From Candidatus Heimdallarchaeum aukensis (GTDB lineage Archaea; Asgardarchaeota; Heimdallarchaeia; Heimdallarchaeales; Heimdallarchaeaceae), in assembly GCA_021513695.1 (NCBI GenBank), contig CP084166.1:576001-640000 (forward strand): DNA of 64,000 nt. Direction: 5' to 3'. The position numbers and the translations under genes are program-made. The notes below the pieces were generated by a model, which was not told the origin of the DNA, made no database searches, and saw nothing but the letters and a program-made list of their open reading frames with translations. Below, one piece after another: positions 12,399 to 63,624 of this stretch. Position 1 is the first letter of the stretch; each line of letters opens with the position of its first letter.

Positions 12399-14156
12399 TT
12401 ATGATTTATAACTCCCATATAGATAAAGAAATCGTTCTAAATAGTACAAGAAAACTTGATTGAAATAACCGGGAAAATAAATATCAGCTGCGTGACCTGC
12501 ATATGGAAAAGTTAGTAAAGCACAATCTGTTTTTCCAGTGCCTAAATAAGCATTTTTTATTATCTCTGACTCTTCAATCAATCTATCTTTTTCTCCTTGA
12601 AATATCAAACAAGGAGGAGAGCTCTCATTGATCAATATACTTGGATTGACCCATTCGTCCTTACTTTTTGTTGCAAACTCATATTTAACATTGTTTGCAG
12701 GATAATAAGGAATTATTCCTTTTATCCTTAATTTATTTGAAAAAATTTCAGTATAATTTCCAGAATCTATGCTTAGCGCAGTAGCTAAAGCGAGTTGCCC
12801 TCCTGCAGAACTTCCAGAAATAAATACTTTATCTAAATTTGCTCCGTATTCTTCCGCATGCTCTTCCAAGTAAAAAGTGAAATTACCTATTTGTCGAATC
12901 ATATCGTCAATAGTAAATTGTCCATAAACATTTTCTGGTCCGATTTTTAGCTTTCCAAAAACTGGTGTCTCATTATTTAGTCCGTATTGGATGTCAAAAA
13001 CACAGTATCCTTGTGCTGCAAGATATCTATTCATCATTTGTACATTAAGCTGTCCCTTATCTCCAAGAACCCACCCTCCTCCGTGAATTCTTATAATTGT
13101 TGAATTTTTTCCAGGTAAGGTTTCACTTGTTTGTTTCGGTAAGTAAGCATCAAAATAGAGTTTAATATCTTTATCAACTGAATAATTACTTTTGCTACCA
13201 TTAAAGTAAAGCACATCTGTTATAACTTGAACATCAAATTTTCCAATGCCAAAAAAGTATCCTGTTAGTTGAAAAGGATCATCGAGAAAATAATCTGTAA
13301 AACTAGAATTTTCTATAACTTTTTTCCAATCACCATCAAAATAAGGATTAAAAGCGTTTGAGAATTCTAATTCTGCTTGTTTTATTGTATAAGGAGTATA
13401 AGCTACTGGAACAAAAGAGAGAGAAGTAAAGGTTAACCCAAAAACTGCTATTAAGGCAATTTTTGCCTTAAAATATTTAGATCTCTTATTTGAAATGTTG
13501 ATGAGTGTAGATGAAGAGTTTAAAACTATTAAACCAATAAAAATCCCTGCAGGAGCAACAAAAACGCTTAACAAAAAGAAGAAAGTGTTTTGCATTCTTG
13601 GAGCAAAAAATATTATCGATGTAACTATCCCTAAACTCAACCCCAATAACGCCAAAATTAAAAGAATGACTTTAGCTATTTTACAAACTATTGTACCCTT
13701 TTCTTTTTCTTTTTCTTTTTCTTTTTCTGTGTTTTCTAGTTGATCTTTTATTCTTCTTTTTTTCACTAACCAGTAAAGACTTATAAAAGCAGGAAAAGAA
13801 AATAAAAACAATAAACTAAGAACAATCGCAACAGAAAAGATCACATTTATAGATTTGACAGGTGTGAAACCTGTAAAATTAACAAAAAATAGTACAATAA
13901 AGGAAAGAAAAGAGAAAACAAAGTAAAGGTATGATAGAATTCTAATATCACTTTTTTGTTTCGGCGATTCTAATTGTTTTGAGTTCAGGAAAGACAAAAA
14001 GAAGTAATTAAACATAATTGTAAATATAATGAATAATCCATTAATATTCCAAATTAAAGAATTTGAGGGATTTGCTAAATAAATTGAGCCTGTGATAATA
14101 TTTAGAACATTGATTATAATTGAAAATATGGTTATGTACAAAGGAAACTGTTTCAT
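12399..14156 (-). CDS. Membrane-anchored alpha/beta-hydrolase (HSL-type esterase/lipase)
   Basis: N-terminal half is polytopic TM. C-terminal half has the HGGGW oxyanion motif and GSSAGG nucleophile elbow. (EK)6 linker. Confidence 0.75.
   Translation of the reverse strand: MKQFPLYITIFSIIINVLNIITGSIYLANPSNSLIWNINGLFIIFTIMFNYFFLSFLNSKQLESPKQKSDIRILSYLYFVFSFLSFIVLFFVNFTGFTPVKSINVIFSVAIVLSLLFLFSFPAFISLYWLVKKRRIKDQLENTEKEKEKEKEKGTIVCKIAKVILLILALLGLSLGIVTSIIFFAPRMQNTFFFLLSVFVAPAGIFIGLIVLNSSSTLINISNKRSKYFKAKIALIAVFGLTFTSLSFVPVAYTPYTIKQAELEFSNAFNPYFDGDWKKVIENSSFTDYFLDDPFQLTGYFFGIGKFDVQVITDVLYFNGSKSNYSVDKDIKLYFDAYLPKQTSETLPGKNSTIIRIHGGGWVLGDKGQLNVQMMNRYLAAQGYCVFDIQYGLNNETPVFGKLKIGPENVYGQFTIDDMIRQIGNFTFYLEEHAEEYGANLDKVFISGSSAGGQLALATALSIDSGNYTEIFSNKLRIKGIIPYYPANNVKYEFATKSKDEWVNPSILINESSPPCLIFQGEKDRLIEESEIIKNAYLGTGKTDCALLTFPYAGHAADIYFPGYFNQVFLYYLERFLYLYGSYKS
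13698..13727. repeat. Hexanucleotide microsatellite (TTTTTC)n encoding (EK)n on the minus strand
   Basis: Read directly: c ttttc tttttc tttttc tttttc tttttc. Lies in-frame inside the esterase linker. Confidence 0.6.
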
Positions 14157-14357
14157 AGAAGTTTTAATTCTTGTTTAATTTATTTATTTTTCTACTGTTA
14201 TTGCAAAAGTTTGTCCAATAGATGTACAATCAGTTCCTATTTGTGATTTTGTTACTAAGAAACAAATGAAATGCTCTTTTTTCTTTCACAAATTATTAAC
14301 ATTCAGTCTTAAAAATAGTTGAAAAAATAAAAAAAGAAAGTAAGAATCAGCTGTTAT

Positions 14358-16733: not shown

Positions 16734-16803
16734 TTCATATCACCCACGTTTTGTTTATTAATATGCGTTTTTTGTTGTCAGTATCCTAAACATAACAACA
16801 CCC

Positions 16804-16812
16804 TTATATAAA
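16804..16812 (+). promoter_or_regulatory. Candidate TATA box for the TetR gene
   Basis: TTATATAAA lies about 30 nt upstream of the ATG at 16841, consistent with a short-leader or leaderless archaeal promoter. Confidence 0.35.
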
Positions 16813-16840
16813 CATAACCTAATAACTATTCTGAGAAGAG

Positions 16841-17530
16841 ATGAATGATAGTTTCAGGATGAGAAAAGATCAAAGAAAAGAATTAATTAAACAAGTAGCA
16901 ATACAAAAAATGGTTGAAGAGGGTATAGAAAACGTAAGTATGAAATCTATTGCAGAAGAAGCAGAAATATCAGATACGCTACTCTACCGCTATTATCCCA
17001 GTAAATATGTGATATTATATGACTTCTTCTTATGTGAATTTGATAAAATAAATGATCGAATTGAAGAAATCTTTGAAACAATCAAAATAATGATTACTGA
17101 CCTTTCTCAATCAATTCCAATTCTAGTTAAAATATTGAAAAAACTTCTAAGAGAGTTCAAGTATGGATTACTCTTATTAATAAATGAAGAGGAAAAAATA
17201 TTTACTTACTTGGAAGAAGGAAGAAAAATTTGGGAAGAGAAAGGAGAAAACGTTCCTACTCTTTCATTAGAATATTTCCTAAATAAGCAAACAGTGGAAG
17301 TTATCGCAGAATATTTCTTAAGATGTAAAAAGGACGGGTTCTTTAAAGAAACAATTGACCCAAAAGTTGCTTCAATGATGCTTATAACAATAATCTGGCA
17401 AACAATAATAAAAAGACCATACAAGTTCTTAGAACCAGAAATGAAAGAAGAAGAATATGATAGATTACTTGATGCACAAATAGATATCATAATCAAGGCT
17501 TTAACTCCAAAGTCTAAAAGTGAAAAATAG
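16841..17530 (+). CDS. TetR/AcrR-family transcriptional regulator
   Basis: N-terminal HTH (MKSIAEEAEISDTLLYRYYPSK). Divergent from the MMPL exporter. Confidence 0.8.
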   Translation: MNDSFRMRKDQRKELIKQVAIQKMVEEGIENVSMKSIAEEAEISDTLLYRYYPSKYVILYDFFLCEFDKINDRIEEIFETIKIMITDLSQSIPILVKILKKLLREFKYGLLLLINEEEKIFTYLEEGRKIWEEKGENVPTLSLEYFLNKQTVEVIAEYFLRCKKDGFFKETIDPKVASMMLITIIWQTIIKRPYKFLEPEMKEEEYDRLLDAQIDIIIKALTPKSKSEK

Positions 17531-17575
17531 AATTAAAATTTTAAAGATATAAAGAAAAAGTGGGTCTATTATTAC

Positions 17576-18151
17576 TTAAGCTATGATAAGCTCGATAAAA
17601 TCGTTTGCAAATTTTTCTACTTTTTTCCAATCTCTGAAGTCAACAATATTGTTTTTCATATCTGGTTCATGTTCTTTGGCCACTACAGAAGCAATTTTCT
17701 TATCTAGCCAGCCCATTCTACTATTATCTGACAGATCAAGTTTTCCTCCAAATGCTTCAATTAGTTGAAATTCTAAACCTAGTTTTTCAATTCGTTCAAT
17801 TATGTATTGTTTTTTAATTTCATCATATCTTTCTTGCTGTGCAGCAAAAGCTGAACTAATGAAAAATGCCTTTTTTCCGCTATATTGTTTTAGTTTTTCT
17901 TTCTCCTTATTCAGATAATTTTTTACTTCTTTTACCCACATTGACATCTTAATTCCTGTACCTATAACAACACCATCGTAATTATTAATTTTAGGAAGAT
18001 TTTTGTTTTTGACTTTTTTTAAATCAAAAATGTCTGTTTTAATTTCTTTTTTCTCAAACATCTCCTTTAATTTCTCAGCTACTTCTTCTGTTGCTCCAAA
18101 TCTTGTTCCATATAGGATTAAAACTTTCTTATCAGTAATTTTATTCACCAA
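17576..18151 (-). CDS. Flavodoxin-domain protein
   Basis: KVLILYGTRFGATEEVAEKL N-terminus and an alpha/beta pattern of about 190 aa. Confidence 0.7.
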   Translation of the reverse strand: MVNKITDKKVLILYGTRFGATEEVAEKLKEMFEKKEIKTDIFDLKKVKNKNLPKINNYDGVVIGTGIKMSMWVKEVKNYLNKEKEKLKQYSGKKAFFISSAFAAQQERYDEIKKQYIIERIEKLGLEFQLIEAFGGKLDLSDNSRMGWLDKKIASVVAKEHEPDMKNNIVDFRDWKKVEKFANDFIELIIA

Positions 18152-26355: not shown

Positions 26356-27426
26356 ATGATATGGCTTTCTTTATCTTATTCAATTTTTTCTTTAATAATT
26401 TTAACAATGTTTCTGATTGTTATTATTATAAAACAACTTGAACTTCGATGTACAGCAGTTTATTTTCTAATCATGATCATTGTATCTATTATTGGATGGA
26501 TAGTTGGAGATATGTTACAGATCATTTTTAGCAGCTTGGAAAATAAAGAATTGGTTCTCCTATTTTCACGAATAGCTACTATAAGTAGCATGATTGCAAT
26601 GATTAGCACAGTCTTATTTGCTAGAGTTCTAACTGCTCGTCAAACTTTGAATTCAACAATCGTAATTATTGCTTTCATGTTGTTTAGTGCTGTCGTTGCT
26701 CTCACTTTAAGTTCTAGTTATAAAGTAATTGATCCACCTAAAGATGTAGAATTTTACAAGACCGAAGCAGAACTCTTATGGGTAATTTTTGATGGAGTTT
26801 TGGTAATATTTGCTGGTTCTGTTTTCCTTTACTATCTTATTCGACAAAGAAAAATTGTACAAAAAAGATACTTACCTGTTTTAACTTTAATGAGCGTAGG
26901 AGTCATAATCGCTTTCTTTGTTAGCACTATCCTTTACACAATTTATGCGATATGGTTTATTGTTCCTTTATTACATTTAGAACTGGTAAGCGCTAGTTTA
27001 GGCGCAATAATAATAGGAATAGCAATGATCAAAGGAGGAAAAGAAGCAATTTACTATTCATCAAGAGTTTTCTCATTACATATTTTTGATGAAGTAGGAA
27101 TAAGCTATTATGCTAGTGTTTTTCAAGCAGGATATATAGTTGATGAGCAATTAATCTCAGGAGTAGCATCAGCTATTATAAGTTTTGCAAAAGAACTAAT
27201 CGGAAAAGAGGTTTTTCCACGAGAAATAGATCTTGACGATTACTCATTATTACTAGCTAAAAAAGACAATATAATTATTCTAATAAGCGTGGAATATCCT
27301 ACTGCACATCTAAGACAGACGATGAACAATATTATTGAAAAATTCAGTATGGATATGAGTGAAGAGGAAATAGGAAATCTTGTTGAAAACTATATATGCT
27401 TTGAACCAAGAAAACTAGTCCACTAA
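26356..27426 (+). CDS. 7-TM-like membrane domain fused to a cytoplasmic longin/roadblock-type domain
   Basis: N-terminal 230 aa are polytopic. The C-terminal 120 aa share the pattern seen in 46018..48018 and 57494..59419 (h-h-h-x-x-x-G-I-x-h-x-S-x-x-F ... L-I-S-G-h-x-S-A-I-I-x-F-x-x-E-L). Confidence 0.6.
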   Translation: MIWLSLSYSIFSLIILTMFLIVIIIKQLELRCTAVYFLIMIIVSIIGWIVGDMLQIIFSSLENKELVLLFSRIATISSMIAMISTVLFARVLTARQTLNSTIVIIAFMLFSAVVALTLSSSYKVIDPPKDVEFYKTEAELLWVIFDGVLVIFAGSVFLYYLIRQRKIVQKRYLPVLTLMSVGVIIAFFVSTILYTIYAIWFIVPLLHLELVSASLGAIIIGIAMIKGGKEAIYYSSRVFSLHIFDEVGISYYASVFQAGYIVDEQLISGVASAIISFAKELIGKEVFPREIDLDDYSLLLAKKDNIIILISVEYPTAHLRQTMNNIIEKFSMDMSEEEIGNLVENYICFEPRKLVH

Positions 27427-31834: not shown

Positions 31835-31983
31835 TCTATCTCTTCCACTACTTTTGATGTTAATTTTTGAATATTATTTTTAAACTTTTTTTTGAACGAA
31901 GTTTCCTAGATAAAAAAATTTAAACATGCAAAGAAGAGAATATATTAGAAACAATTGATTAACTACGATATTGGTTGAACTCC

Positions 31984-32547
31984 ATGACAGAAAAACAGTT
32001 TATTTTCAAAATTGTACTTATTGGTGATGGCGCAGTAGGAAAAACTTCTATTAGAATGCAATATATGGGATACGGATTCAATACCAGTCATCTTATGACC
32101 CTGGGAGCAGATTTTTCATCTATTGATAAAGAAATTATTCCTAACGAAAAATGGAAATTTCAAATTTGGGATTTAGCAGGACAACAAATGTTTGAACAAG
32201 TTCGAGCTCGTTTTTACAAAGGAGCTCAGGGTGCCTTACTTGTCTTTGATATCACTCGCCCTTCCTCTTTTCAAAACCTTCCCATGTGGTTAAACGAATT
32301 GTATAAATTCAACGGATCAGGAGTTGTCCCTGTTGTAGTCCTTGCTAATAAGAGTGATTTGAGAGATAGAAAAAGTGTTAAATTCAAACATGTAGAAAAA
32401 TATGTTTCTGAATTAAATCTGCGTACCCAACGCTATGGTGTAACTAATTATTGTTTAGAAACAAGTGCCAAGACTGGATTAAACATCGATAGAGCTTTTG
32501 AAATTCTCGGGAGAAGCATTCGAGATAAATCAAGCAAAAAAACATAA
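31984..32547 (+). CDS. Ras/Rab-like small GTPase with canonical G1-G5 motifs
   Basis: GDGAVGKTS (G1), TLGADF (G2), WDLAGQQ (G3), NKSD (G4), SAK (G5). No C-terminal Cys lipidation motif. The track ORF starts at TTG 31975; I prefer ATG 31984. Confidence 0.9.
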   Translation: MTEKQFIFKIVLIGDGAVGKTSIRMQYMGYGFNTSHLMTLGADFSSIDKEIIPNEKWKFQIWDLAGQQMFEQVRARFYKGAQGALLVFDITRPSSFQNLPMWLNELYKFNGSGVVPVVVLANKSDLRDRKSVKFKHVEKYVSELNLRTQRYGVTNYCLETSAKTGLNIDRAFEILGRSIRDKSSKKT

Positions 32548-32628: not shown

Positions 32629-33195
32629 ATGCTCACATTTAAGATCCTTTTTATAGGCGATAATAGCGTAGGTAAAACTACTTTATTTAAAAAAATTGTT
32701 CAAAATGAAAAAAATAAAGAAAAGATCCCTTCTCTAAAAGCAGAAATAGTAAAAGTTTATCGTACAATCCAAGGAGAAGAAGTAGCTTTTGAACTATATG
32801 ATTTACCTGCGAGAGAACTTTTATCATCTCCTCAAAGAACAAAATGGTATTTAGGGACTGATGGAGCGTTTATAGTTTTTGACATTACAAAAGCAGAAAC
32901 GTTCAGAAGAGTAACATTCTGGCTAGAACAATTAATAAATTATAACAGAAAAGGGAAGATACCTATAGTATTAGTAGGTAATAAAATAGATATGAGAGAC
33001 AATCCTAATGTGAGAAATAGGACACTAAACCCTATAGATGCTCAAGCTTTCTGTCTTCGACTAAATCGTACATCAGCTAGAGAAGGAATTAATAATGAAT
33101 TCTTCGAAGTCTCAGCAATCTCAGGGAAAGGTTTAACTCAATTACTTGATGCATTAGCTAAAAATATTTATAACCATCACAAAAAAATAAAATAG
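32629..33195 (+). CDS. Divergent small GTPase-like protein with degenerate switch I/II
   Basis: GDNSVGKTT (G1), NKID (G4) and SAI (G5) are retained. G3 reads YDLPARE instead of DxxGQ, and no switch-I Thr is evident. Confidence 0.8.
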   Translation: MLTFKILFIGDNSVGKTTLFKKIVQNEKNKEKIPSLKAEIVKVYRTIQGEEVAFELYDLPARELLSSPQRTKWYLGTDGAFIVFDITKAETFRRVTFWLEQLINYNRKGKIPIVLVGNKIDMRDNPNVRNRTLNPIDAQAFCLRLNRTSAREGINNEFFEVSAISGKGLTQLLDALAKNIYNHHKKIK

Positions 33196-33825: not shown

Positions 33826-35067
33826 TTGAGTATGAAATATTGCACAAAATGTGGAACAAAAACACCAGAAGATGCAGTTTTTTGTTATGTATGTGGAACA
33901 AAAATTGATGATCTATCTGTTGATTTACAAAAATCAACAAAGGACAAAGTAAGCGATCACAGACATTACTATCCTCACTCTTCACAACAAATAGATGATA
34001 AATACTACAAAGATTATACCCACAAAGAACACGTTTTTCTTAAAATCTTAGCTATTGTCTTTATAATTGGAATGATCACTGCTTCTATTTCTTTATTTGC
34101 TGTTTTCAGCTCTTTCAGAATGGATGTCATTGGTACTCAAAATTACTATTTAGAAGAAGCAAACTCTAATGAAGTTTTTCTAAATATTTACAACGGTATT
34201 GGAGACATAGACATTATCTTTACTGATGATACAGACATAATGGTCGAAATAAATGTAATCGTATTAGGCAGAAAAAATGTTGATGAGTCAGAATTTGCGG
34301 AATTTAAAATAAATGATTATGAGAAAAATCTTACCATTGAGTTTGATTCTGGAGAACAAATCTTTTCTTTCTTTAATAAGAAAATTCTTGAATATGATAT
34401 TAGCATTACTTTAAACTCTAAACTAGTTCTATATGCAGATGTTCAGATGGAAACGGGAGACTTTTACTTGGACATCAATTGCCAAACAGCTAATATAAAC
34501 AATTTAAATATTGTAACAAAGACAGGTGATGTTAGCATTTATGCATATTCCACGGAAAATGTAACAATCAACAACGTATATCTAGTTTCCACAACTGGAC
34601 AAATTCAGTTTAGTTTAAGTGATGAAGGAGCAAATTACATCAGCAATGTATTTGCAACCACAACCACAGGAAAAATATTTTTCGATTTTGGTAGGAATAG
34701 TATATACAATGGAAATGAAATAGAACTTACAACAACTACAGGAAAAATAGTCCTATACTGCACTAACATGCAATATTTAGAAAATGTTACTTGGTTAATT
34801 TCTACAAGTACAGGTTCGGTTTATGCAAATATCACTCAAGATTTTATCATTGAAAAACAATTACAAATTTCTTTCTTTATTACAGTTAATACTGGGTCAA
34901 TAGAAATTCTTGCTGAATTCCACGATGATATTGGTTACCTTTTCGAAGCAACAACTGATACTGGAACAATTACAATTCCTGAACAATCTCCAAATTATGA
35001 TACTGCTTTAAACAAGTATTATTTTTCCTTAAGCACTGACACTGGAAACATAATGGCAGAATTGTAA
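33826..35067 (+). CDS. Zinc-ribbon / TM / DUF4097-like beta-helical (putative adhesin) protein
   Basis: CTKCGTK..CYVCGTK, one TM helix, then repeated TxTG(D/K/S)I motifs (TKTGDVSI, TTTGQIQF, TTTGKIFF, TTTGKIVL, STSTGSVY, VNTGSIEI, TDTGTITI, TDTGNIMA). Confidence 0.6.
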   Translation: MSMKYCTKCGTKTPEDAVFCYVCGTKIDDLSVDLQKSTKDKVSDHRHYYPHSSQQIDDKYYKDYTHKEHVFLKILAIVFIIGMITASISLFAVFSSFRMDVIGTQNYYLEEANSNEVFLNIYNGIGDIDIIFTDDTDIMVEINVIVLGRKNVDESEFAEFKINDYEKNLTIEFDSGEQIFSFFNKKILEYDISITLNSKLVLYADVQMETGDFYLDINCQTANINNLNIVTKTGDVSIYAYSTENVTINNVYLVSTTGQIQFSLSDEGANYISNVFATTTTGKIFFDFGRNSIYNGNEIELTTTTGKIVLYCTNMQYLENVTWLISTSTGSVYANITQDFIIEKQLQISFFITVNTGSIEILAEFHDDIGYLFEATTDTGTITIPEQSPNYDTALNKYYFSLSTDTGNIMAEL

Positions 35068-46017: not shown

Positions 46018-48018
46018 ATGAAAAGTTTTTTACCTAAATTTCTGCTTAATGAAATCGATCTTTATTTAGATGATTCTCAGAAGTCTATTTTTGAAGAGAA
46101 GGTTAAAAGTATTGTAAGTAATGCTTCTGACTATGATACGATTTCCAAGGACATTACTGCCTTTCTTTTGAATGAAGATTTTACTGATTTAACGACTTAT
46201 GATCAAATGCTTATTCTTGTTTCAATTCTTCTAAATTACTGGAAAAAGGATTATTCTCTTATTTTTAGCATCTATGACAAATTTCATTCTTTTGATTTAC
46301 CTCTTAGCGTTATGATTTGTTTTCTTCTATTTTTTCAAGAATCTTTTGATTTAACCACTTTTAACCTTTGGAGAGAGAAGATAGAAGAGTACATTACAAA
46401 CATTTCTGATTCTACTGAAAAAGAATTTCTTAAAACTGCTATTGAGCAATTTGCTTCTAAGCTTGAGCAAAGGCCTGAGGTTGGTTATCGTTCTATGAAT
46501 CAGCTTATTCGTTCTCTTGAGGAGAATGAGCATATTTCTTATCGATATCCTTTTGTTTTCGAGGCTTTAGAGATTGATCTTATTCAGTACTCTAACATTT
46601 TAGCTGATGAAGTTTTTTCTGAAATCTGGATTGAGTCCGCTAGAAGAAGAGCTGAAGTTATGGAAAACTATGGCATGTTAGTTCAAGTTAACAGCCTTCT
46701 TGCTAGTATTTTAGTTAAAGAGTATCATCTTGAAAAAGCTAAAGAGAAAATTGAGGAGGGGTTAGAGATTGCTAAGAGGATCAATTCTCCTATTTTAGCT
46801 GCTCAAATTGAGTTGAACAAGGCCTTGTTATTGAAGATGCAAGGTAAGTTGGACGAAGCTTTGAAGTTATATGAAAAAATTGCTAAAGTTAAGAATCTTC
46901 CTCAAACTTTTCAATTGGATATTTACAGTAAAATAGGTGAAATTTATCTCAACAAGGACGAGATAGTTAAAGCTGAAGAATACTACCTTAAAGCTCACGA
47001 GATTAATAAGAAACTTAATTTTATCAATCCTCTTGTTGAAATAGTTATAGGTTACATTAACCTGATTTTAGAGAAAGATAAGGGGGAAGCTTTAGATGAG
47101 GGGTTGAAGATTGCTGAAGAACAGTTTGATTTTTCTTCTATTCCTTACTACTACTTCTACAAAGGTATTTATGAGCAACAAAGGGTTAACTTATCCTTAT
47201 CTATTGAATACCTTGAACAAGCTTTGAACTCTTTTGAGCACCAAAAGAACTTTGAGGGTATTGTTTATACTAACGGTGCATTGGCAGAGTCTTATCTTCA
47301 GATTTACAAGCTTCTTCACGATAACAAATATTCTTCTCGGTTCCTCTATTATATTGACAATCTTATTGAAATACTAAAGGAGTTAAACAATCCTTTGTAT
47401 GTTGAAGCAATAAAGACTAAAGCAGGTTACTATTTAGATAAAGGTTTAATTAAAAATGCTGAAGATCTGTTTATTGATGGAATAGAATTTGCTAGGACAC
47501 GAGGATTAAAAGAGGAAGAAATATATCTTAAGGAATCGCTTACTAACAAGAAGAATTTAACAAAAATAACTTTAGAAGGTACTCAAATACTCTTTAGAAA
47601 AATAAGGATGTTCAGCTTTGGTAAGCATAAAACTGTTCCCACCAAATTATACTTACTTTTAGCCATTAATGAAGCTGGAATTCCTTTAGTTTCTCACTCT
47701 TTTACTGAAGAAGAGATGGTAGATGATCTTTTAGTTTCAGGGTTAATTTCAGCTATAATTAATTTCTCTTCTGAAGTTCTAGGAAAAGGAGGAGAAACCT
47801 TACGATCAATAAATCATGAGGGCAAAGCTGTTATAGTAGAGAAAAAGGACAATGTGATGGGTATCTTAGTTGCTGAAGATGAGAATTTCGAGATGAGACT
47901 GGAACTTAGACAGTTTTTGCAGAAAGCGCTTGATAAGTTAGTTTCTGGACTTCCTATTGTCAGAGAAAACGACAGTGAGATTTTTTCTATTATAGAAGAA
48001 GTTTTTGAGAGAAAATAA
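46018..48018 (+). CDS. TPR-rich scaffold protein with C-terminal longin (Bet5/sybindin-like) / roadblock-type domain
   Basis: 666 aa. Helical/TPR repeats through about residue 520. C-terminal KLYLLLAINEAGIPLVSHSF..DDLLVSGLISAIINFSSEVL..INHEGKAVIVEKKDNVMGILV. Confidence 0.75.
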   Translation: MKSFLPKFLLNEIDLYLDDSQKSIFEEKVKSIVSNASDYDTISKDITAFLLNEDFTDLTTYDQMLILVSILLNYWKKDYSLIFSIYDKFHSFDLPLSVMICFLLFFQESFDLTTFNLWREKIEEYITNISDSTEKEFLKTAIEQFASKLEQRPEVGYRSMNQLIRSLEENEHISYRYPFVFEALEIDLIQYSNILADEVFSEIWIESARRRAEVMENYGMLVQVNSLLASILVKEYHLEKAKEKIEEGLEIAKRINSPILAAQIELNKALLLKMQGKLDEALKLYEKIAKVKNLPQTFQLDIYSKIGEIYLNKDEIVKAEEYYLKAHEINKKLNFINPLVEIVIGYINLILEKDKGEALDEGLKIAEEQFDFSSIPYYYFYKGIYEQQRVNLSLSIEYLEQALNSFEHQKNFEGIVYTNGALAESYLQIYKLLHDNKYSSRFLYYIDNLIEILKELNNPLYVEAIKTKAGYYLDKGLIKNAEDLFIDGIEFARTRGLKEEEIYLKESLTNKKNLTKITLEGTQILFRKIRMFSFGKHKTVPTKLYLLLAINEAGIPLVSHSFTEEEMVDDLLVSGLISAIINFSSEVLGKGGETLRSINHEGKAVIVEKKDNVMGILVAEDENFEMRLELRQFLQKALDKLVSGLPIVRENDSEIFSIIEEVFERK

Positions 48019-52182: not shown

Positions 52183-54399
52183 TTACCCTAATACTAGTTC
52201 TTTTTCTGGTTTTGACTTCTGTTTAGTCTTTTTTGTATCTATTGTTTTTTTCTCTATTTCTGTATCTTTTTTCTTAACTATATCATCTTTCTGTTGATCT
52301 AGGGATGTTTCTACTTTCTCTTTCTTTTCTTTAATATACTTAGCTTCTTCTACACTTACTTCTTCTGTCTCTTTTGTATCATTTTGTTGTTTTTTCTCTT
52401 TGATTTCTTCTTTAGAAGGAACAACTTTTTTTGAAATCCTCTCTTTTCTAGTATCTTTTGCTTCTTGTCTCGTTTCTTTTTTTACCTTTGTCATTATTTT
52501 AGGTTCTGACTTTTGTTCTTTCTCTTTTTCTAGTTCTTCAACTATTTTAATTTGCATTTCTTTTTTGACTCTTTCATATAAATTGACTGACCAAGGTAAA
52601 TTCTCTTGAATTGAAATATTAGAGAGAGAACGAAGAATCTCTATAACAAATTTTTTCTGTGTTTCCTTGTTACTTGAAAGCTTGTTATATGCATTTGACA
52701 AAATAGAATAAACTTTTTCTTCCTCAGTGTAAAGAAACAACATATTTCTGATTACTGTTGAAAGATCTCTATTTTTCTCAAATTGGAAAATGTTCTTGCA
52801 TATTATATCTTCAAATACTTTTTTAAGGGTAGAATCATTTTTTTCTACTGTTTTTAGATCAAAACAAGTTTGAATACTTTCAATAGTTAAGTTTTGTAAA
52901 GAGTTAGAAATGAAACCCTTTTTTTGATTTAATGTTGTGATTACTCCATTTAGGAAGTTTGTGCTCAAGGTTTCTGCGCAAATAGATAACAGTTCATTTT
53001 TTTGATTAGTAAAAACTAATTCACTCTTTAGATTTTGTAAAATGACTACAACTTCTTCTACATCAAAGTCTCCTGAAATCTTGTTTTTTATTGATTCCTC
53101 TGAAAAGAATACTGAATAATAATAGAATTTTTCACTTAACTCTGATAACGTAGGATCTTTACTTTTATTCATATCTTTTATATTCATTGAAAGTGCAACT
53201 AACAACCCTCGAATAATTTTTTCAAAATCTCTTTTTTCTTCTTCTTTTGAAACTTGGAGTTTAAATAACATTATAATTAGTTTATTGATTTGTAAAAGAA
53301 CTAGTTCTTTTTCTTTTAATGTTAAATCTGATAACTCGGTATCTATTGCAATTACTGATTTATCTAATAAAAAGTTTAGATTTTCTCTTGTCTTTGAATT
53401 AAGTTTGCTTTCTTTACCTAAAGCATGAAAATAAGCAAAAGTGCTAATAGCAAATAAATTAATTCTCTCTTCTAGTCTATTTAAAAAAACTTCAAAGTTT
53501 CTAACTATTTTATCTAATTTTTCTTCAGGTTTATCTTGCTGCTCTAAACCTATTTTAAAGCTATTTAGGTAGTCTATTGAACATTTTGAAGAAAAGATGT
53601 ACAATATTGTTGGATAAAAAGTTAGATATTCAAGGAGCTCTTTCTTAATCAAATTAATGTCAAAGAAATAGTTAGATGCTCCCATTAAAAGTGCAAAATC
53701 AGTAAGAAATTGTGCTTTCTCAATAGGTAAAAATTTTAACAAATCGTTTTCTAAATACTCAAATCGAATGAGTTTTCTTCCGCAAGAAGGGCAAGACTCT
53801 TCATTAACTATTTTTTGTCCACATATTGAGCATAAAACAGTCTTTTTTCTTATTTGTATTCCACATTGATTACAATAATTGCTGTCAGGGTGATTAGAAG
53901 AATCACAGTTTAAACATTTAACAACCTTAAAAGAAGGTTTTTCTTTTCTTTCAAAGTATTCTTCTTTTTGTTCTTGTTCGATACTTGTCTCTTTCTGGTG
54001 AATGTCAAATTTTAAACCACAATATTTACAAAAACGAGCGTTTGGAGGATTAACAGTTTGACAGTTTGAACAAATCAAAATGTTTGGTTCACTTTTTTTC
54101 TCTGTAAATCTTGCACCACATTGGGTACAAAATTTTGCATCAATTTTTTGCATAGATCTACAAAAAGGACAAGCTTTTGTCTGTGAGCTACTTTTATTTT
54201 TCTTGTTTCTTTCATTAGCAAAGTTGTATCCACATTTAGAACAAAACAGAGCTTCATTTCGAACATATTTCTGACAAACAGGACATTGTTTAAGAAGTGT
54301 ATATTCAGTAGGAGTATCGATTTTATTTCCACAGTGAGTACAATAAGAAACTTCTTTTTTATTCAGAAGACCACATCTATTGCACATCTTTTGTATCAT
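52183..54399 (-). CDS. Six tandem zinc ribbons, long helical domain and K/E-rich tail
   Basis: Six CxxC-x10/11-CxxC units in residues 6-207, then about 400 aa helical and a C-terminal low-complexity K/E/T region. Confidence 0.75.
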   Translation of the reverse strand: MIQKMCNRCGLLNKKEVSYCTHCGNKIDTPTEYTLLKQCPVCQKYVRNEALFCSKCGYNFANERNKKNKSSSQTKACPFCRSMQKIDAKFCTQCGARFTEKKSEPNILICSNCQTVNPPNARFCKYCGLKFDIHQKETSIEQEQKEEYFERKEKPSFKVVKCLNCDSSNHPDSNYCNQCGIQIRKKTVLCSICGQKIVNEESCPSCGRKLIRFEYLENDLLKFLPIEKAQFLTDFALLMGASNYFFDINLIKKELLEYLTFYPTILYIFSSKCSIDYLNSFKIGLEQQDKPEEKLDKIVRNFEVFLNRLEERINLFAISTFAYFHALGKESKLNSKTRENLNFLLDKSVIAIDTELSDLTLKEKELVLLQINKLIIMLFKLQVSKEEEKRDFEKIIRGLLVALSMNIKDMNKSKDPTLSELSEKFYYYSVFFSEESIKNKISGDFDVEEVVVILQNLKSELVFTNQKNELLSICAETLSTNFLNGVITTLNQKKGFISNSLQNLTIESIQTCFDLKTVEKNDSTLKKVFEDIICKNIFQFEKNRDLSTVIRNMLFLYTEEEKVYSILSNAYNKLSSNKETQKKFVIEILRSLSNISIQENLPWSVNLYERVKKEMQIKIVEELEKEKEQKSEPKIMTKVKKETRQEAKDTRKERISKKVVPSKEEIKEKKQQNDTKETEEVSVEEAKYIKEKKEKVETSLDQQKDDIVKKKDTEIEKKTIDTKKTKQKSKPEKELVLG

Positions 54400-57493: not shown

Positions 57494-59419
57494 TTAATTA
57501 ATATATGTTAGAATGAAAGAATCTTGTATAAGATCTTCTATTTTCTTTTCTTCTATTTTGTCAAAAAACTTACCTGTTTTTGGAATGGAAGTTAGTTTAT
57601 GCCATAATTCCTCGAATTTTCCAATGTTATTAACAAAGTTATCTATCTTTTTATTGGCAGTGAAAGAAGAGCCTTTGAACACATAACAAAAGATTATTCC
57701 TTCCTTGTTTTTGAACGTCAAAAAGTAGTCATGATATTCTACTTGCTTGATTGAACCTTCTGTTGCTAAAACCTCTTTTAATATGTTATTTAAAGCAGAA
57801 AGGAATCCTGAAAATAGAATACTGTCATATTTCTCCTCACTAAAGTTATAACTGTAAAGTGGTATTCCATGTTCATTTAGAATAAGCAACATAACTGGAG
57901 TGTCTTTTTCTATTACTTCGAGTTCGTAGCTAACCCTTTGTATCATCTGCGAAACTAAAGTGTCAACTTGTGTTTTTTCTATTCTTTTCTTTATACTCAC
58001 ATCAGAATTAAGAATTGCTTTCCATTTATTATGTTCTCTTACAATTGAATCATATTCTAAACTTATTTTTTGAGCTAAATTGTCTAATCCTTGAGAAAAA
58101 GCTATCTCCTGCGCTTTTAATAAATCCTCTTGAGCTTCATCAAGATTTAGTTGAATTAGATTAATCTTTCCTTTTAACCAGTAAGCTTCTGCTAAGAGAG
58201 ACCTAGATATTTGCATTTCTGCAATTTTTAATAGCTGAATGTTTATATCCTTTAGTTCATCTATAATTTCGCTTTCATTAAAAATAGTAAGCTCTTCTAG
58301 CAATATTTCAGTAAGGTTTAACATCGCATGAATATTTATCTCATTGTAAATTTCATTCGTTCTAATAATAGAATGAAGAAGAGAGATAGCTTTCGCTTGT
58401 GAAACAAATCTTTTTCGCTCTTTTAATACACTTGCTTCTGTTAGTTTAGCATAAAAACTCAAAAACTTGTTTTTTTCCTTTCTAGATAATTTTTTTAATT
58501 CTTTCAAGTATTCCTGAGCTTTCGATATTTGCCCTAGTAAAATGTGTAACTTAGTCAAATAATAGGTGGATTCAGCTATAATATAGTTAAATTTAACTAA
58601 TTTTGCATAATTTATACTTTTATCGAAAAAATCTAAAGCTAGATTAAACTCTCCTTTACTGAAATAAACGATGCCTATATTATTGAAAACTTGTGAAATT
58701 CCAAAAATATTTTCTTTTTCTTGATAGTTAATTAAAGCATCGTTATATAGTTCAACCGCTTTATTTAGATTTCCTTTTAATCTATAAATCTCACCTATAG
58801 AAATTAAAGTATTGTTAATTATTTGCTTCGAGTTTAAAAATTCACCATAAACAAGACACTCTTCAAAACAAGCAAGGCTTTGATTTAGATTTCCTTTTTG
58901 GGCATTTATTTTTCCTTCTCTATATTTTAAAAAAGCATAAATTTTGGTCTCATTCTTCTCTTTAACTAATTGTAAAGATTTTTTTACTAAATTCAGTGCT
59001 CGTGGTAGATCTTTATAGATAACCAGTAAAGCTTGGCAGAGATTGAAAATGGCATTAACTTCATTTTTATCTTTCTTAATTACCTTTGATTTTGTTTTTT
59101 TGAAGTGTAATAAAATTTCTTCACTTTTTTTGTTTTGTGATAAAAGGAGAGAAAAAACCTCTATCAAATAATAGTAAACATAGAAATCATTAGCCATAAG
59201 TTCTTTCTCATTTTCAAGGTAACTTAAAAGTTGAAGGCCAAATACTTTGCAATCCTCTACTTTACCAAACTCATAAGCTGTTTCAACTTTGTGATTTAAT
59301 AAACTTCTTTTTTCAATTGAAGGTTGTTTTCTCTCTTCTTCATGGTTATTTATTTGGGTAATAATTTCAGAATATTTGGTTGAATCTAGAATTTTTTCGT
59401 TTTCTATGAAATCTATCAC
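57494..59419 (-). CDS. TPR-rich scaffold protein with C-terminal longin (Bet5/sybindin-like) / roadblock-type domain (paralog of 46018..48018)
   Basis: 641 aa. TPR repeats (IGEIYRLKGNLNKAVELY, IGIVYFSKGEFNLALDFF ...). C-terminal VMLLILNEHGIPLYSYNFSEEKYDSILFSGFLSALNNILKEVL..VEYHDYFLTFKNKEGIIFCYVF. Confidence 0.75.
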   Translation of the reverse strand: MIDFIENEKILDSTKYSEIITQINNHEEERKQPSIEKRSLLNHKVETAYEFGKVEDCKVFGLQLLSYLENEKELMANDFYVYYYLIEVFSLLLSQNKKSEEILLHFKKTKSKVIKKDKNEVNAIFNLCQALLVIYKDLPRALNLVKKSLQLVKEKNETKIYAFLKYREGKINAQKGNLNQSLACFEECLVYGEFLNSKQIINNTLISIGEIYRLKGNLNKAVELYNDALINYQEKENIFGISQVFNNIGIVYFSKGEFNLALDFFDKSINYAKLVKFNYIIAESTYYLTKLHILLGQISKAQEYLKELKKLSRKEKNKFLSFYAKLTEASVLKERKRFVSQAKAISLLHSIIRTNEIYNEINIHAMLNLTEILLEELTIFNESEIIDELKDINIQLLKIAEMQISRSLLAEAYWLKGKINLIQLNLDEAQEDLLKAQEIAFSQGLDNLAQKISLEYDSIVREHNKWKAILNSDVSIKKRIEKTQVDTLVSQMIQRVSYELEVIEKDTPVMLLILNEHGIPLYSYNFSEEKYDSILFSGFLSALNNILKEVLATEGSIKQVEYHDYFLTFKNKEGIIFCYVFKGSSFTANKKIDNFVNNIGKFEELWHKLTSIPKTGKFFDKIEEKKIEDLIQDSFILTYIN

Positions 59420-59679
59420 CTTAACAAAGAATTTAATAAATTCGCTTCCTTCAACTTAAAGAATATTTCTATTTACGTGCGTGATTTGTATTATAATGAA
59501 ATTATTGATTTTTAAACCTATAACTAAATTATTCTTAAGCTTCTACTTCTCTTTTTTTAATTTGAAAGATTTAAATAGATTCAAGTCACAAAATTACCAA
59601 TAAATTGGAAAAAATAAATAAATGCATCTAAAAATTGGATTTTATTCAGTTAAAAATAGAATTTTAAAGAGTTGATAAG

Positions 59680-62600
59680 ATGAAAAAGAAGACAATAACT
59701 TTGATCTTTATACTGTTAATAATGATTCAAGTATCTTCTTTATTTATAGAAACAGAAGCTTCAAATTACATATATACTCAACTTAAGTGGAGAAAAATAT
59801 CAAGCTACAATTATGGAGAAGCTTCTTTCTTTGACTATGATAAAGACGGAAAATTAGATGTTTTTTTTAAAACAGCAGAAGGCATAGAAATTTACAATCA
59901 TAAAGGAAATCTATTAAAGAAAATTCATGGTTATTTCCAATATACCCCCACAATTACAGACCTAGAAAAAGATGGAGATTTAGAGTTTATTACTCAAAAC
60001 TACTATGGAATAGAAATATACGATTCTACCGGACAATTAAAAGAACAGAACTTAACTTTATATAGTGCCTACGCGAGAATTGTGGTTGCAGACATTAACA
60101 ATGACGGGATACAAGAAATAATTTATCATTCCACAGGTGATATAATATGCTTCAACAATCAATTAGAAGAAATTTGGAGCTATAAATTTGAAAATCCAGA
60201 CTATTATGGAAGTATTTATGATCTCGTAGTTAATTCAGATGCAGATTCTGAAAAAGAAATTGTAGTTTATTATGACAACTCGATTTATCTATTTAATACA
60301 GATGGTGAAAAAAAATGGTCAAAATCCTTACCTTCTGAAGGAATTGTCGCTTATGATTTTAATGATGATGGTATAGATGAAATAATTGGAACCAAATCAT
60401 CAGATTACACAATTTACTCTTTAAACAGTCAAGATGGTTCTGAATTGTGGATTAATGAAATGGCTGTAAACTTAAACCCTTTGCCTATTGACCTTGATCA
60501 AGATGGAATTGTAGAATTAATAGCTCTTTCTACTGATAATGACAAGTCTGAATCTTATATTAATTATATCAATGGAAAAACAGGAGAAGTAGAAGAACAG
60601 GTAACTGTAGATCAAAGATTCTTTACTAATTCATATTACGAATTCTTTCCTGAAACTCCAGCTGTAGGAGATTTTGATGGTAATGGGGTGTTGGACCTTA
60701 TCTTTCTTGCTTTTTCATATGCTTATAGTGTTGCTACACTGATTTATTCTGCAGATGGGTATAGAATAGCAGAATTTGACGAGGGTTCACTAACAACTCC
60801 AACAATTGTTGACCTGGATGGTAATGGAAGAACAGAAATAATGATACGTGATTATTCAGGAATATTCTGCTATGAGGTTACTGGATCAACTTCTGGAAAA
60901 AATATCTGGTATAAAGAAAGAGGAAATATAGCTAATACAATGGTAGTAGATACAGATGGAGACTTGCTAGATGATATAAGCGAAGAATTTTATGGTTCAG
61001 ATAAAGGAAAAGAAGATACTGACGGTGATACCCTTTTAGACGGAATAGAGATAATTGGTTCTGGTTCTTCACCTATAAAACAAGACACTGATGGAGATGG
61101 TTTAACAGATGATGTTGAATATGAATTAGGTTTCAACCCAAGATTAAATGACTTAGATTTGGATTATGATGATGATAGTTTAACCAATTATGATGAAGTA
61201 TTTGTTTATTCAACAAATCCTATGTCTAATGATACAGATAACGATTTACTACTTGATAATGAAGAAATTAATACTTATGGAACGTCTCCAACAAACAACG
61301 ACACAGATGCAGATGGTGTTATTGATGGAGAAGAAGTACATACTTACGGAACATCACCATTAGATAATGATTCAGATGACGATGGAATGGAAGACGGATA
61401 TGAAGTCTTATACAACTTAGATCCTCTTGTAAATGATAGTTATGGAGATATTGACTCAGATGGTTTGTTAAATATTGAAGAGTTTACATACAATTCAAAC
61501 AGTTCAAATGTAGACACAGATAATGACACAATTTCAGATGGTGATGAAGTTCATACTTATGGAACGTCTCCAACAAACAATGATTCTGATGGAGATAATC
61601 TCACAGATAATGAAGAAATTTATACTTATGGAACGTCTCCAACAAACAACGACACAGACGCAGATATTATGTGGGATGGTTGGGAGATTGAATATGGATT
61701 TAATCCCTTAATCGACGATGGAGATGAAGATTTAGATTCTGACGGTCTTTCCAATGCTGAAGAATTTATTTATTCAACAGAGCCTAACAATACTGACTCA
61801 GATTCTGACCAACTCCTTGATGGAGAAGAAGTACATACTTATGGAACAGACCCTGCTAAAATTGATAGTGACGAGGATGAGCTTACTGATTATGAAGAAG
61901 TTATAGTTTATACAACAAATCCTGTGTCTAACGATACTGATAATGACTTAATGGGTGATTATTATGAGGTTAATCATGGTTTAAACCCCCTTGTAAACGA
62001 TACTTTAGGCGATCTTGACAATGATACTCTAACAAATTATGAAGAATTTTTACTTGGTACTTTACCTAATAACAATGATACTGATGGAGATGGAATGAGT
62101 GATGGTTTTGAGTATCAATATGGACTAATTTTAACTGACAATGATTCTTCATTGGACAAGGATAAGGATGGTTTATCTAACCTTGACGAATTTTTACATA
62201 ATACCAACCCTCTCTCTAATGATACTGATGGAGATGGAATGTTTGATGGTTTTGAAGTGCAATATAACCTTAACCCAAATTTAAATGATTCTGCAGGAGA
62301 CCCTGATGCTGATGGAATATCAAATATTGATGAAATGAAATATGGTTCATCACCAATTAGCTCTGATACAGACAGTGACCGTCTAACCGATCCTGAAGAG
62401 ATATTCATCTATCACTCTAATCCTGCAATAAAAGATACAGATGGAGATGGTTTAGAAGATGGAGAAGAAGTACTTGATTTTGGTACAAGCCCAACTAACG
62501 AGGATACAGACGGGGACACTCTTAGTGACTATGTAGAGATTTATGTTTTCCTCACTGACCCAACAGACCCTGATACAGATAACGATGGAATGAATGATGG

Positions 62601-63624
62601 AGAAGAAATAGAAATAGGAAAAGATCCGCTTACTAAAAACTACTACACACCACTTTCTAAACTTCTACTTATATTGCCTATTGTTGGAGGAATAGTCCTC
62701 TTTGGTGGCTTAATATATGGAGCTATGATTTTTTCTAAGAAAATTAAAGAGAGAAAGCGTAAAGAGATAGTAGAAAAAGAGATTCTGTTGCTTAAATCTG
62801 AGCATCTAAATTTAGATGACAGGATAAACATTCTAGCAAAAAAAGAATCTATTTTTACTGATAAAATCACTTTTCGCTCTTTGGTTGATGTGACTAAACT
62901 CTATTTCAACTTTCTTGCAAAATTTGACGATAAATACACTTTAATTACTAAATTCAAAGAAGTTGGTAATCTTCAGGAATGGAATGAAGTGAAGGAGAAA
63001 GCTTTTTCATCCTTTGAACGGCTATTAAATACAATAAAAGACAATCTCCATTCCTTTGACATAAACGACATAATAAAGAATCAGTATCCTTCACTAATAA
63101 ATCTTGAAAAGAAAGGCGAACTAACAGCAAAAGAACTCTTACAAGTTCATTCTGATGGAAAAGATTTACACCTCTATGTTGAAGAATTCAAAAAATATCT
63201 AAAGATTTTACTAAGAAGATTGAACGCTTTAGAATCTCTCTTTTCAACTAAAGATGAGCTTTTGGATATTGTTGCTTCAAGTTCAATTATTACTGCTCTA
63301 AAAGAAAAAGATTCATTAATTACTCAACTAGAGAGGAACGAGATCAAATATGTTCGAGAAAAAATAAATGCAGAAAATCATTGTATTTACTGTGGTATTC
63401 AACTACATGATGATGCTAAAACATGTTCAAACTGCCAACGCACTCTTCCTTCTTGCCCTATTTGTAAAAATACTTTCAGATTCTTTGATGAAGTCTATAC
63501 TTGTCCCGAATGCTTTTCAAAGATTCATAAAGATGAACTGGAGATTTGGTTAGGAGATAAAGGAACTTGTCCTAAATGTAACAAATCTATTACTTTATAC
63601 AACTTAGATGTTGAAATAATCTAA
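59680..63624 (+). CDS. Giant type-I membrane receptor: FG-GAP beta-propeller, about 24 TSP3-like Ca-binding repeats, TM, helical cytoplasmic region, zinc ribbon and RING-like finger
   Basis: 1314 aa. Signal peptide. Seven DxDxDG-type FG-GAP blades (DYDKDGKLDV ... DLDGNGRTEI). Repeated DTDGDG/DSDxD motifs. TM LLLILPIVGGIVLFGGLIYGAMIF. C-terminal CxxC clusters. Confidence 0.85.
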   Translation: MKKKTITLIFILLIMIQVSSLFIETEASNYIYTQLKWRKISSYNYGEASFFDYDKDGKLDVFFKTAEGIEIYNHKGNLLKKIHGYFQYTPTITDLEKDGDLEFITQNYYGIEIYDSTGQLKEQNLTLYSAYARIVVADINNDGIQEIIYHSTGDIICFNNQLEEIWSYKFENPDYYGSIYDLVVNSDADSEKEIVVYYDNSIYLFNTDGEKKWSKSLPSEGIVAYDFNDDGIDEIIGTKSSDYTIYSLNSQDGSELWINEMAVNLNPLPIDLDQDGIVELIALSTDNDKSESYINYINGKTGEVEEQVTVDQRFFTNSYYEFFPETPAVGDFDGNGVLDLIFLAFSYAYSVATLIYSADGYRIAEFDEGSLTTPTIVDLDGNGRTEIMIRDYSGIFCYEVTGSTSGKNIWYKERGNIANTMVVDTDGDLLDDISEEFYGSDKGKEDTDGDTLLDGIEIIGSGSSPIKQDTDGDGLTDDVEYELGFNPRLNDLDLDYDDDSLTNYDEVFVYSTNPMSNDTDNDLLLDNEEINTYGTSPTNNDTDADGVIDGEEVHTYGTSPLDNDSDDDGMEDGYEVLYNLDPLVNDSYGDIDSDGLLNIEEFTYNSNSSNVDTDNDTISDGDEVHTYGTSPTNNDSDGDNLTDNEEIYTYGTSPTNNDTDADIMWDGWEIEYGFNPLIDDGDEDLDSDGLSNAEEFIYSTEPNNTDSDSDQLLDGEEVHTYGTDPAKIDSDEDELTDYEEVIVYTTNPVSNDTDNDLMGDYYEVNHGLNPLVNDTLGDLDNDTLTNYEEFLLGTLPNNNDTDGDGMSDGFEYQYGLILTDNDSSLDKDKDGLSNLDEFLHNTNPLSNDTDGDGMFDGFEVQYNLNPNLNDSAGDPDADGISNIDEMKYGSSPISSDTDSDRLTDPEEIFIYHSNPAIKDTDGDGLEDGEEVLDFGTSPTNEDTDGDTLSDYVEIYVFLTDPTDPDTDNDGMNDGEEIEIGKDPLTKNYYTPLSKLLLILPIVGGIVLFGGLIYGAMIFSKKIKERKRKEIVEKEILLLKSEHLNLDDRINILAKKESIFTDKITFRSLVDVTKLYFNFLAKFDDKYTLITKFKEVGNLQEWNEVKEKAFSSFERLLNTIKDNLHSFDINDIIKNQYPSLINLEKKGELTAKELLQVHSDGKDLHLYVEEFKKYLKILLRRLNALESLFSTKDELLDIVASSSIITALKEKDSLITQLERNEIKYVREKINAENHCIYCGIQLHDDAKTCSNCQRTLPSCPICKNTFRFFDEVYTCPECFSKIHKDELEIWLGDKGTCPKCNKSITLYNLDVEII
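61261..61665 (+). repeat. Near-identical intragenic DNA repeats in the TSP3 region
   Basis: A 54-nt unit (GAAGAAATT.ATACTTATGGAACGTCTCCAACAAACAACGACACAGA.GCAGAT) occurs at 61261 and 61612 with 2 mismatches. A 29-nt core copy lies at about 61553. Confidence 0.7.

Follow-up and report, generated by a model that had tools for sequence, protein, structure and literature searches.

A TPR protein with a C-terminal longin domain in Candidatus Heimdallarchaeum aukensis and its Asgard-wide family

Longin-domain GTPase regulators are among the core components of eukaryotic membrane traffic, and to our knowledge no prokaryotes other than the Asgard archaea possess them in large numbers. Some longin domains, including those of SNAREs, SRX and the adaptor sigma and mu subunits, do not regulate GTPases catalytically. 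For those longin and roadblock modules that act as dimers there are well-described precedents in Mon1-Ccz1, TRAPPC1/C4, FLCN-FNIP, NPRL2/3 and MglB (PMC10933270, PMC12290439), and the longins that act as GAPs have been described as carrying a contiguous GP motif and an arginine finger (PMC12290439). In Asgard archaea, longin and roadblock proteins are very numerous and have shuffled architectures, amounting to 130 asCOGs (Liu et al., 10.1101/2020.10.19.343400). The TPR is among the accessory domains of some of the longin-containing multidomain proteins that are related to ESCRT (PMC10936438), and it has been reported that Asgard GTPase genes do not, as a rule, share operons with those for longin or roadblock proteins (PMC10933270).

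The gene considered here occupies positions 57494..59419 (stop codon included) on the minus strand of the window, by which we mean the whole 64,000-nt stretch of Ca. H. aukensis DNA that was analysed, and it encodes a TPR-longin protein of 641 aa that is documented by the ORF list, Pfam matches, homologs and a full-length AF2 model. The window is AT-rich, with a GC content of 26-36% per 2-kb segment. The ORF as listed begins with GTG, the first start codon downstream of the preceding stop, and the proteins of two relatives (P0002 and P0003) share this start. The equivalent codon of Ca. H. endolithica is GTA, and the NCBI start of the ortholog lies 46 residues further downstream; the N-terminal residues are nevertheless kept in the H. 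endolithica translation. Full-length homologs are present in other Asgard genomes at 84-98%, at 38-40% and down to about 30% identity, and the gene is thus no chance ORF. The closest of these, all from Candidatus Heimdallarchaeaceae, are a JGI metagenome protein (98%) and proteins of Heimdallarchaeaceae MAGs (84-88%); the Ca. H. endolithica protein is 88% identical. Neither the translation nor Pfam revealed a signal peptide, a transmembrane (TM) segment or an enzymatic domain, and the protein appears to be cytoplasmic.

The full-length AF2 model (pLDDT 83.5, pTM 0.82) consists of three parts, all encoded on the minus strand: a 22-helix TPR superhelix of about 11 helix pairs (residues 16-461; 58037..59374), delimited by DSSP on the model, Pfam and Foldseek; three short linker helices (residues 463-494; 57938..58033), in which the alignment and the model place a near-invariant R479; and a longin domain with the order beta-beta-alpha-beta-beta-beta-alpha-alpha-alpha (residues 507-635; 57515..57901). 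Several 34-residue helix-turn-helix repeats score above the Pfam cutoffs, as members of the TPR family do: TPR_12 reaches 57.4 bits (cutoff 30.1), TPR_2 46.4 (27), TPR_8 44.6 (25.7) and TPR_1 42.6 (27.8). Together with TPR_MalT, which covers residues 130-442 at 45.0 bits, exactly its cutoff, these matches span residues 130-442.

What does the TPR arm resemble? When the solenoid was compared with the PDB by Foldseek, the best matches were the TPR domains of LGN/Pins and Rap proteins (E 1e-8 to 1e-6), with target-normalised TM-scores of up to 0.70, those of the Rap quorum-sensing receptors being 0.68-0.70. Among solved structures, LGN/Pins and the Rap/RRNPP proteins come nearest to the N-terminal 460 residues, and their superhelices are similar to this one in length and curvature. 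The similarity is that of generic repeats, at 13-18% identity, and the 641-aa protein has none of the GoLoco, phosphatase and HTH modules. The superhelices of LGN/Pins and Rap bind peptides, so that the likeness hints at ligand binding by the arm, not at the role of the protein. The TPR_MalT match and the Rap TM-scores could also be taken to mean that this is a regulatory TPR protein of the MalT/Rap type, whose C-terminal domain would serve for ligand sensing or oligomerisation and have no link to small GTPases or membranes. The structural kinship of longin and GAF/PAS-like folds would accommodate such a module, and Asgard longin-type domains have been found fused to two-component signalling domains (Liu et al., 10.1101/2020.10.19.343400). 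We consider this explanation unlikely.

The initial annotation had placed a longin domain at nt 57497-57895 (residues 509-641), in good agreement with the AF2 model, where beta1 is at 507 and the last helix ends at 635. A second AF2 model, of residues 490-641 only and based on an alignment of 54 sequences (pLDDT 80.8, pTM 0.76), has the elements beta1-beta2-alpha1-beta3-beta4-beta5-alpha2-alpha3-alpha4, which is the longin order. The five-stranded antiparallel sheet, the lack of an N-terminal helix and the C-terminal helices packed on the sheet are those of the longin superfamily fold. A roadblock/LC7 (MglB-like) assignment was ruled out by topology, since it needs an N-terminal helix and the order alpha-beta-beta-alpha-beta-beta-beta.

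The window contains a divergent TPR-longin paralog of 666 aa at 46018..48018 on the plus strand, recognised by Pfam TPR matches and alignment, with its longin domain at about nt 47644-48015. The two genes are on opposite strands, 9.5 kb apart, and the initial annotation was right in giving them the same architecture: both have TPR matches, and their C-terminal domains are 30% identical over 89 aa (E 5e-9). A third longin-type protein, of 356 aa, is encoded at 26356..27426 on the plus strand; it has a multi-TM N-terminus and no Pfam match, and its C-terminal longin-like domain (about 27061-27423) was detected by hmmsearch with E 1.1e-12, using a profile built without that protein. The window also harbors two Ras-family GTPase genes, 31975..32547 (Pfam Ras E 4e-40) and 32629..33195 (E 6e-26), 25 kb away from the gene of the 641-aa protein.

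In the longin-domain comparison, the values were 13.0 for TRAPPC4/synbindin, 11.0 for AP-3 sigma, a VAMP7-like longin and sedlin, 10.4 for Sec22b, 9.2 for Mon1, 8.7 for HPS4 and FLCN, 8.3 for Inturned, 8.2 for Fuzzy, 8.1 for yeast Npr2 (the NPRL2 ortholog) and 7.9 for NPRL2. The TRAPP core longins (TRAPPC4/synbindin, TRAPPC1, sedlin) and the N-terminal longins of the adaptor sigma and mu subunits have 7-13% identity and no Pfam sequence match, and instead of forming the C-terminal domain of a TPR protein they exist as small separate subunits within multi-protein complexes. Among 54 family members, the only Pfam families that recur are Fuz_longin_1 (13 of the 54, best E 3.2e-7) and Intu_longin_1 (5 of the 54); in the 641-aa protein itself, Fuz_longin_1 covers residues 510-582 at 17.4 bits (E 0.0052), short of the 26.1 bits that Pfam sets as cutoff. 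When PDB sequences were searched with the profile, three of the seven weak matches were different MON1 chains, each of them non-significant (E 0.18-1.3). In the alignment to human MON1A, FVLSEAGKPVYS pairs with the beta1-turn-beta2 of the family, which in the 641-aa protein reads LILNEHGIPLYS, GVMVALVSF pairs with alpha1 (SGFLSALNNI), and IRSIHADGY pairs with beta3 (IKQVEYHDY here, LRSINHEGK in the 46018 paralog). Judged by sequence, and with the protein's own score remaining below threshold, the nearest relative of the domain is thus the Mon1/Fuzzy LD1 type.

This relationship does not make the protein a tri-longin RabGEF. Mon1/Fuzzy/HPS1 (PF19036) and Ccz1/Inturned/HPS4 (PF19031) have three longin domains, whereas the full-length model of the 641-aa protein contains a single one; conversely, the eukaryotic tri-longin subunits are without the long N-terminal TPR solenoid that is found here. 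Nor does it look like a longin GAP of the FLCN/NPRL2/SMCR8 type, neither hallmark of which was recognised in its sequence. In FLCN, NPRL2, SMCR8 and C9orf72 the GP is contiguous, whereas the 641-aa protein has G518-I-P520, a G-x-P arrangement as in MON1A; no arginine finger was identified in it, and the loop between beta4 and beta5 has no conserved Arg. The GAP longins and their Asgard look-alikes (PMC12290439) also differ from the 641-aa protein in that the latter is without a DENN domain.

The conserved surface features of the longin domain are the turn around G518-x-P520 and the loop Y579-x-F-K-G583-x-S past beta5. Across the 147 family representatives listed, the most conserved polar position is the D-R dipeptide with which beta3 begins (D in 96%, R in 99%). 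At this site the 641-aa protein has K558-Q559 and the 46018 paralog R-S, and the Gln in place of the family Arg recurs in the Heimdallarchaeum orthologs of the 641-aa protein. If the beta3 Arg is functional, the 57494 and 46018 copies may be non-catalytic. One could go further and regard the 641-aa protein as a degenerate member that serves only as a structural partner of another TPR-longin paralog, similar to the non-catalytic subunits of longin heterodimers, and conserved paralog pairs are indeed common elsewhere in the family. However, the role of the beta3 Arg is itself putative, and a basic residue is found one position before the Arg site (K558 here; Arg in human MON1A and in both of the other copies in the window), so a shift of register that preserves function may have occurred. 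The protein is, moreover, otherwise well conserved, at 84-98% identity within the genus, and degeneration strikes us as rather doubtful.

How widespread is this architecture? The longin profile was searched against 1.84 billion cluster representatives (50%-identity clusters) and matched 2236 proteins at E<=1e-3, 393 of them at E<=1e-30. Most of the family representatives listed (121 of 147) are at least 500 aa long and have the domain at the extreme C-terminus, and an HMM of the TPR part also matches 118 of these 121. Short matches of about 120-250 aa might have suggested a free-standing domain family, an idea that was rejected; most of them come from contigs only 1-4 kb long and probably represent the C-terminal ends of full-length genes that were cut off. 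A genome scan, with the family alignment pruned to 8 sequences as the query, yielded 149 stretches, from which 77 loci were kept. These are labelled as Heimdall-, Hod-, Hermod-, Thor- or Prometh-/Lokiarchaeota or as unlabelled archaea, and include the cultured Lokiarchaeum ossiferum. Every named match in the domain-only search was from Asgard archaea, and the non-Asgard matches in the full-length search were confined to the TPR part. The TPR-longin family is pan-Asgard and, as far as seen, restricted to Asgard archaea.

Members of the family are publicly named "tetratricopeptide repeat protein", "hypothetical protein" or "MalT-like TPR region", with the longin domain left unannotated. One of the larger Asgard longin subfamilies, with several copies per genome, is thus hidden under a "TPR protein" annotation. 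No description of a family with TPRs and a C-terminal longin domain was found in the full-text literature searched, although the family may already be catalogued among the asCOGs. The TPR-longin family belongs to the expanded repertoire of longin and roadblock proteins in Asgard archaea (asCOG class U; Liu et al. 2020, preprint; Tran et al. 2024; Makarova et al. 2024), and is a new architectural variant within this known repertoire.

Family genes tend to be found next to each other. When the ORFs flanking each family gene, three per side, were clustered without bias, a single class dominated, namely other TPR-longin genes. Between two and five full-length copies are present at 29 of the 77 loci, making 42 adjacent pairs, almost all of them co-directional and mostly separated by less than about 150 bp. 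For 27 of these pairs, a closer match than the neighbour exists among the proteins of other loci; at L020, L022 and L024, for example, the pair neighbours are about 50% identical, compared to 77-79% for the best cross-locus matches. Since the matches across loci exceed the similarity between neighbours, many of these pairs probably predate the divergence of the genomes and were kept. The conserved tandem pairs are also the only hint, an indirect one, of longin dimerisation.

Small-GTPase genes are not enriched around the family genes: 7 were found in the 415 kb within 3 kb of a family gene and 22 in the 643 kb at 3-10 kb, or 0.17 versus 0.34 per 10 kb, in agreement with the report that such genes are generally not linked to longin genes in Asgard operons (PMC10933270). 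Genomic linkage to small GTPases was accordingly rejected as support for a mechanism, the density near the family genes being no higher than that farther off. The same lack of linkage fits the MalT/Rap-type explanation discussed above.

What, then, might the 641-aa protein do? By analogy with the characterised systems, we favour the view that it is a platform for small GTPases, built on a longin dimer and equipped with a peptide-binding TPR arm, and would put the probability of this at about one half. The roughly 11 TPR repeats would form a peptide-binding superhelix, followed by the linker and a longin domain of the Mon1/Fuzzy/HPS1-LD1 type. The longin domain would pair with a second longin, either that of another copy of the same protein or one contributed by a paralog, for instance the product of 46018..48018; dimerisation is most likely, because the characterised longin/roadblock modules that regulate GTPases work as dimers. 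The dimer would bind and regulate a small GTPase of the Ras superfamily, or be recruited by one, and the groove of the TPR arm would hold a peptide of some client or partner protein in extended form. In practical terms, the TPR-longin family constitutes a defined set of candidates for pairing with the Rab-, Arf- and Rag-like GTPases of Asgard archaea.

A bolder proposal, which we regard as a long shot, is that the TPR-longins are heterodimeric GTPase regulators specific to Asgard archaea, and that their LD1-like longins are sister to, or the source of, the catalytic LD1 pair of the eukaryotic tri-longin RabGEFs. If this were true, the co-directional paralog pairs would be an archaeal counterpart of Mon1-Ccz1, the fused TPR arm would take the role that separate solenoid subunits have in eukaryotes, and there would be a concrete archaeal starting point for the evolution of GEFs of the Rab7 type.

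The divergent neighbour of the gene, at 59680..63624 on the plus strand, encodes a type-I membrane protein of 1314 aa with an FG-GAP propeller and TSP3 repeats, as judged from Pfam, hydropathy and matches to PDB sequences. The Pfam repeats are FG-GAP_3 and TSP3_bac, and the translation and hydropathy profile show a hydrophobic signal-like segment at the N-terminus (about residues 4-27) and one strong TM segment (about 990-1019), which is followed by KKIKERKRKE. The cytoplasmic tail, of about 295 aa, consists of coiled-coil-like sequence and a Zn-ribbon/RING-H2-like end, and all five of the CxxC motifs of the protein are within its C-terminal 80 or so residues. This Zn region scores 26.7 bits against Pfam DZR, just under the cutoff of 27.3, and has a weak match to zf-RING_2; among PDB sequences it matches the C-terminal Zn domain of WDR19/IFT144 (E 4e-4) and the RING-H2 fingers of EL5 (E 1.4e-3) and RNF126 (E 2e-3). 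The initial annotation was right in ascribing Zn fingers to the tail. The H. endolithica ortholog of the receptor is 85% identical overall and 77% in the tail segment. A homolog search with the tail (residues 1021-1314) came back empty in spite of this ortholog, and is therefore a false negative that says nothing about distribution.

The divergent spacer of 260 bp that had been reported between the two genes is exactly 59420..59679, and the receptor starts with ATG. An A/T-rich, TATA-like element is found about 20-30 nt upstream of each of the flanking start codons. Aligned to H. endolithica, the spacer is 86% identical, with conserved blocks of about 130 bp next to the receptor start and about 60-75 bp next to the TPR-longin start, separated by a variable middle that is rich in indels. 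Two independent promoters, back to back, would account for this pattern no less well than a shared control element. A scan with a sigma-70 promoter and terminator model, which is ill suited to archaeal DNA, found sites no more often than in shuffled sequences.

The initial annotation had gone on to propose that the two genes are a co-regulated pair of scaffold and receptor for outside-in signalling or trafficking. In its fullest form, the 641-aa protein would be the cytoplasmic partner of the receptor, expressed from a shared divergent promoter, and its TPR groove would bind the Zn-finger tail, which could in principle be a TPR ligand. The close divergent arrangement and the similarity of the spacers are in keeping with this, as is Ca. 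H. endolithica, in which the gene order is identical, receptor included, across the shared 21 kb or so. On the other hand, conservation within the spacer is confined to two separate blocks, one near each promoter, divergent gene orientation is common and by itself no evidence of co-regulation, and the synteny with H. endolithica carries little information, because the latter belongs to the same genus, with 85% protein identity and a fully collinear gene order.

More distant relatives were compared by running tblastn with the FG-GAP part, the TSP3 part and the cytoplasmic tail of the receptor against 83 loci (1.27 Mb), with flanks of up to 10 kb per side, many contigs ending sooner. The only matches were in L001 and L007, which are both copies of the H. 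endolithica locus, and no receptor homolog was found in the flanks (10 kb or less per side) of the 76 other Asgard family loci. The pairing of a TPR-longin with an FG-GAP/TSP3 receptor, whose conservation in relatives had been put forward as a check on the proposal, is therefore not seen beyond the genus, and the proposal is unsupported by synteny; we consider it improbable, although the two genes may still be co-regulated within this genus. The simplest reading of the adjacency to the receptor is that it is peculiar to the genus, and it ought not to be treated as a conserved signalling module. The upstream neighbour of the family gene is co-directional at 56 of 72 loci and divergent at 16, and a divergent neighbour with a TM segment and multiple CxxC motifs occurs at only one of the 72, that of H. 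endolithica. The Heimdall ortholog group, at 38-40% identity, adjoins conserved genes other than the receptor: among its 11 loci, 9 have an all-helical neighbour of about 599 aa and 10 have a cytosolic neighbour of about 405 aa, with a faint DegT-like match.

The TPR-longin type of longin domain occurs in the window a third time, in a 356-aa protein (26356..27426, plus strand) whose N-terminal half contains multiple TM segments and whose C-terminus is a longin-type domain of the TPR-longin subfamily (hmmsearch E 1.1e-12). This product, which has no match in Pfam, is a longin domain with a membrane anchor. The TPR-longin paralog (46018..48018, plus strand) is preceded by a gene for an 856-aa protein (43313..45883), with lysine-rich repeats of ~40 aa at its N-terminus and TPRs at its C-terminus, in which an HMM search for a longin domain found none. 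Since these two genes are on the same strand and only 134 bp apart, they may form one operon. Five loci from genomes of Promethearchaeota and Hermodarchaeota (L082, 4778..14881; L038, ~10000..17710; L029; L060; L075) contain between three and five full-length TPR-longin genes in succession, all in one direction and mostly separated by 50–210 bp.

What might the TPR-longin protein act upon? Two adjoining Ras-superfamily small GTPase genes, 31975..32547 (Pfam Ras, E 4e-40) and 32629..33195 (E 6e-26), both on the plus strand and ~25 kb from the TPR-longin gene, encode candidate clients; linkage statistics gave no support for such a role. The window also includes a P-type ATPase (36381..39275, plus strand) that is 64% identical to an ATPase from three Heimdall genomes of greater distance (L011, 6250..9120; L012; L015), where its gene lies immediately upstream of the one for the TPR-longin ortholog. 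This correspondence may be a leftover of an older regional synteny in which the receptor is not involved.

The receptor tail ends in a Zn-binding part (residues ~1190–1314; 63250..63621, plus strand). In searches of PDB sequences this part matched the Zn domain at the C-terminus of WDR19/IFT144 (E 4e-4), as well as the RING-H2 fingers of EL5 (E 1.4e-3) and RNF126 (E 2e-3), and Pfam DZR fell slightly under its cutoff. Its cysteine spacing, CxxC-x11-CxxC followed by CxxC-x13-CxxC-x4-H-x13-CxxC, differs from that of a canonical RING. A word-index protein search with the tail (62740..63621, plus strand) gave no match, but this search may overlook true relatives, as it missed the 77% identical ortholog in Ca. 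H. endolithica (L007). The window has further Zn-ribbon proteins: one of 738 aa that begins with four double-zinc-ribbon units (52183..54399, minus strand) and a 413-aa Zn-ribbon, TM and DUF4097-like protein (33826..35067, plus strand). Cys-rich ribbons are thus frequent here on membrane or large proteins, and for this genome the Zn tail of the receptor is nothing out of the ordinary.

Among the polar positions of the TPR-longin family, the most conserved is a D-R dipeptide where beta3 begins (D in 96% and R in 99% of 147 cluster representatives). It reads K558-Q559 in the TPR-longin protein (57743..57748, minus strand); its Heimdallarchaeum orthologs likewise have K-Q, and the 46018 paralog has R-S. 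The TPR-longin gene starts with GTG (59417..59419), for which Ca. H. endolithica has GTA (L007, ~10001). In the NCBI annotation the ortholog of that species is 46 residues shorter, although the stretch upstream, when translated, shows conserved residues.
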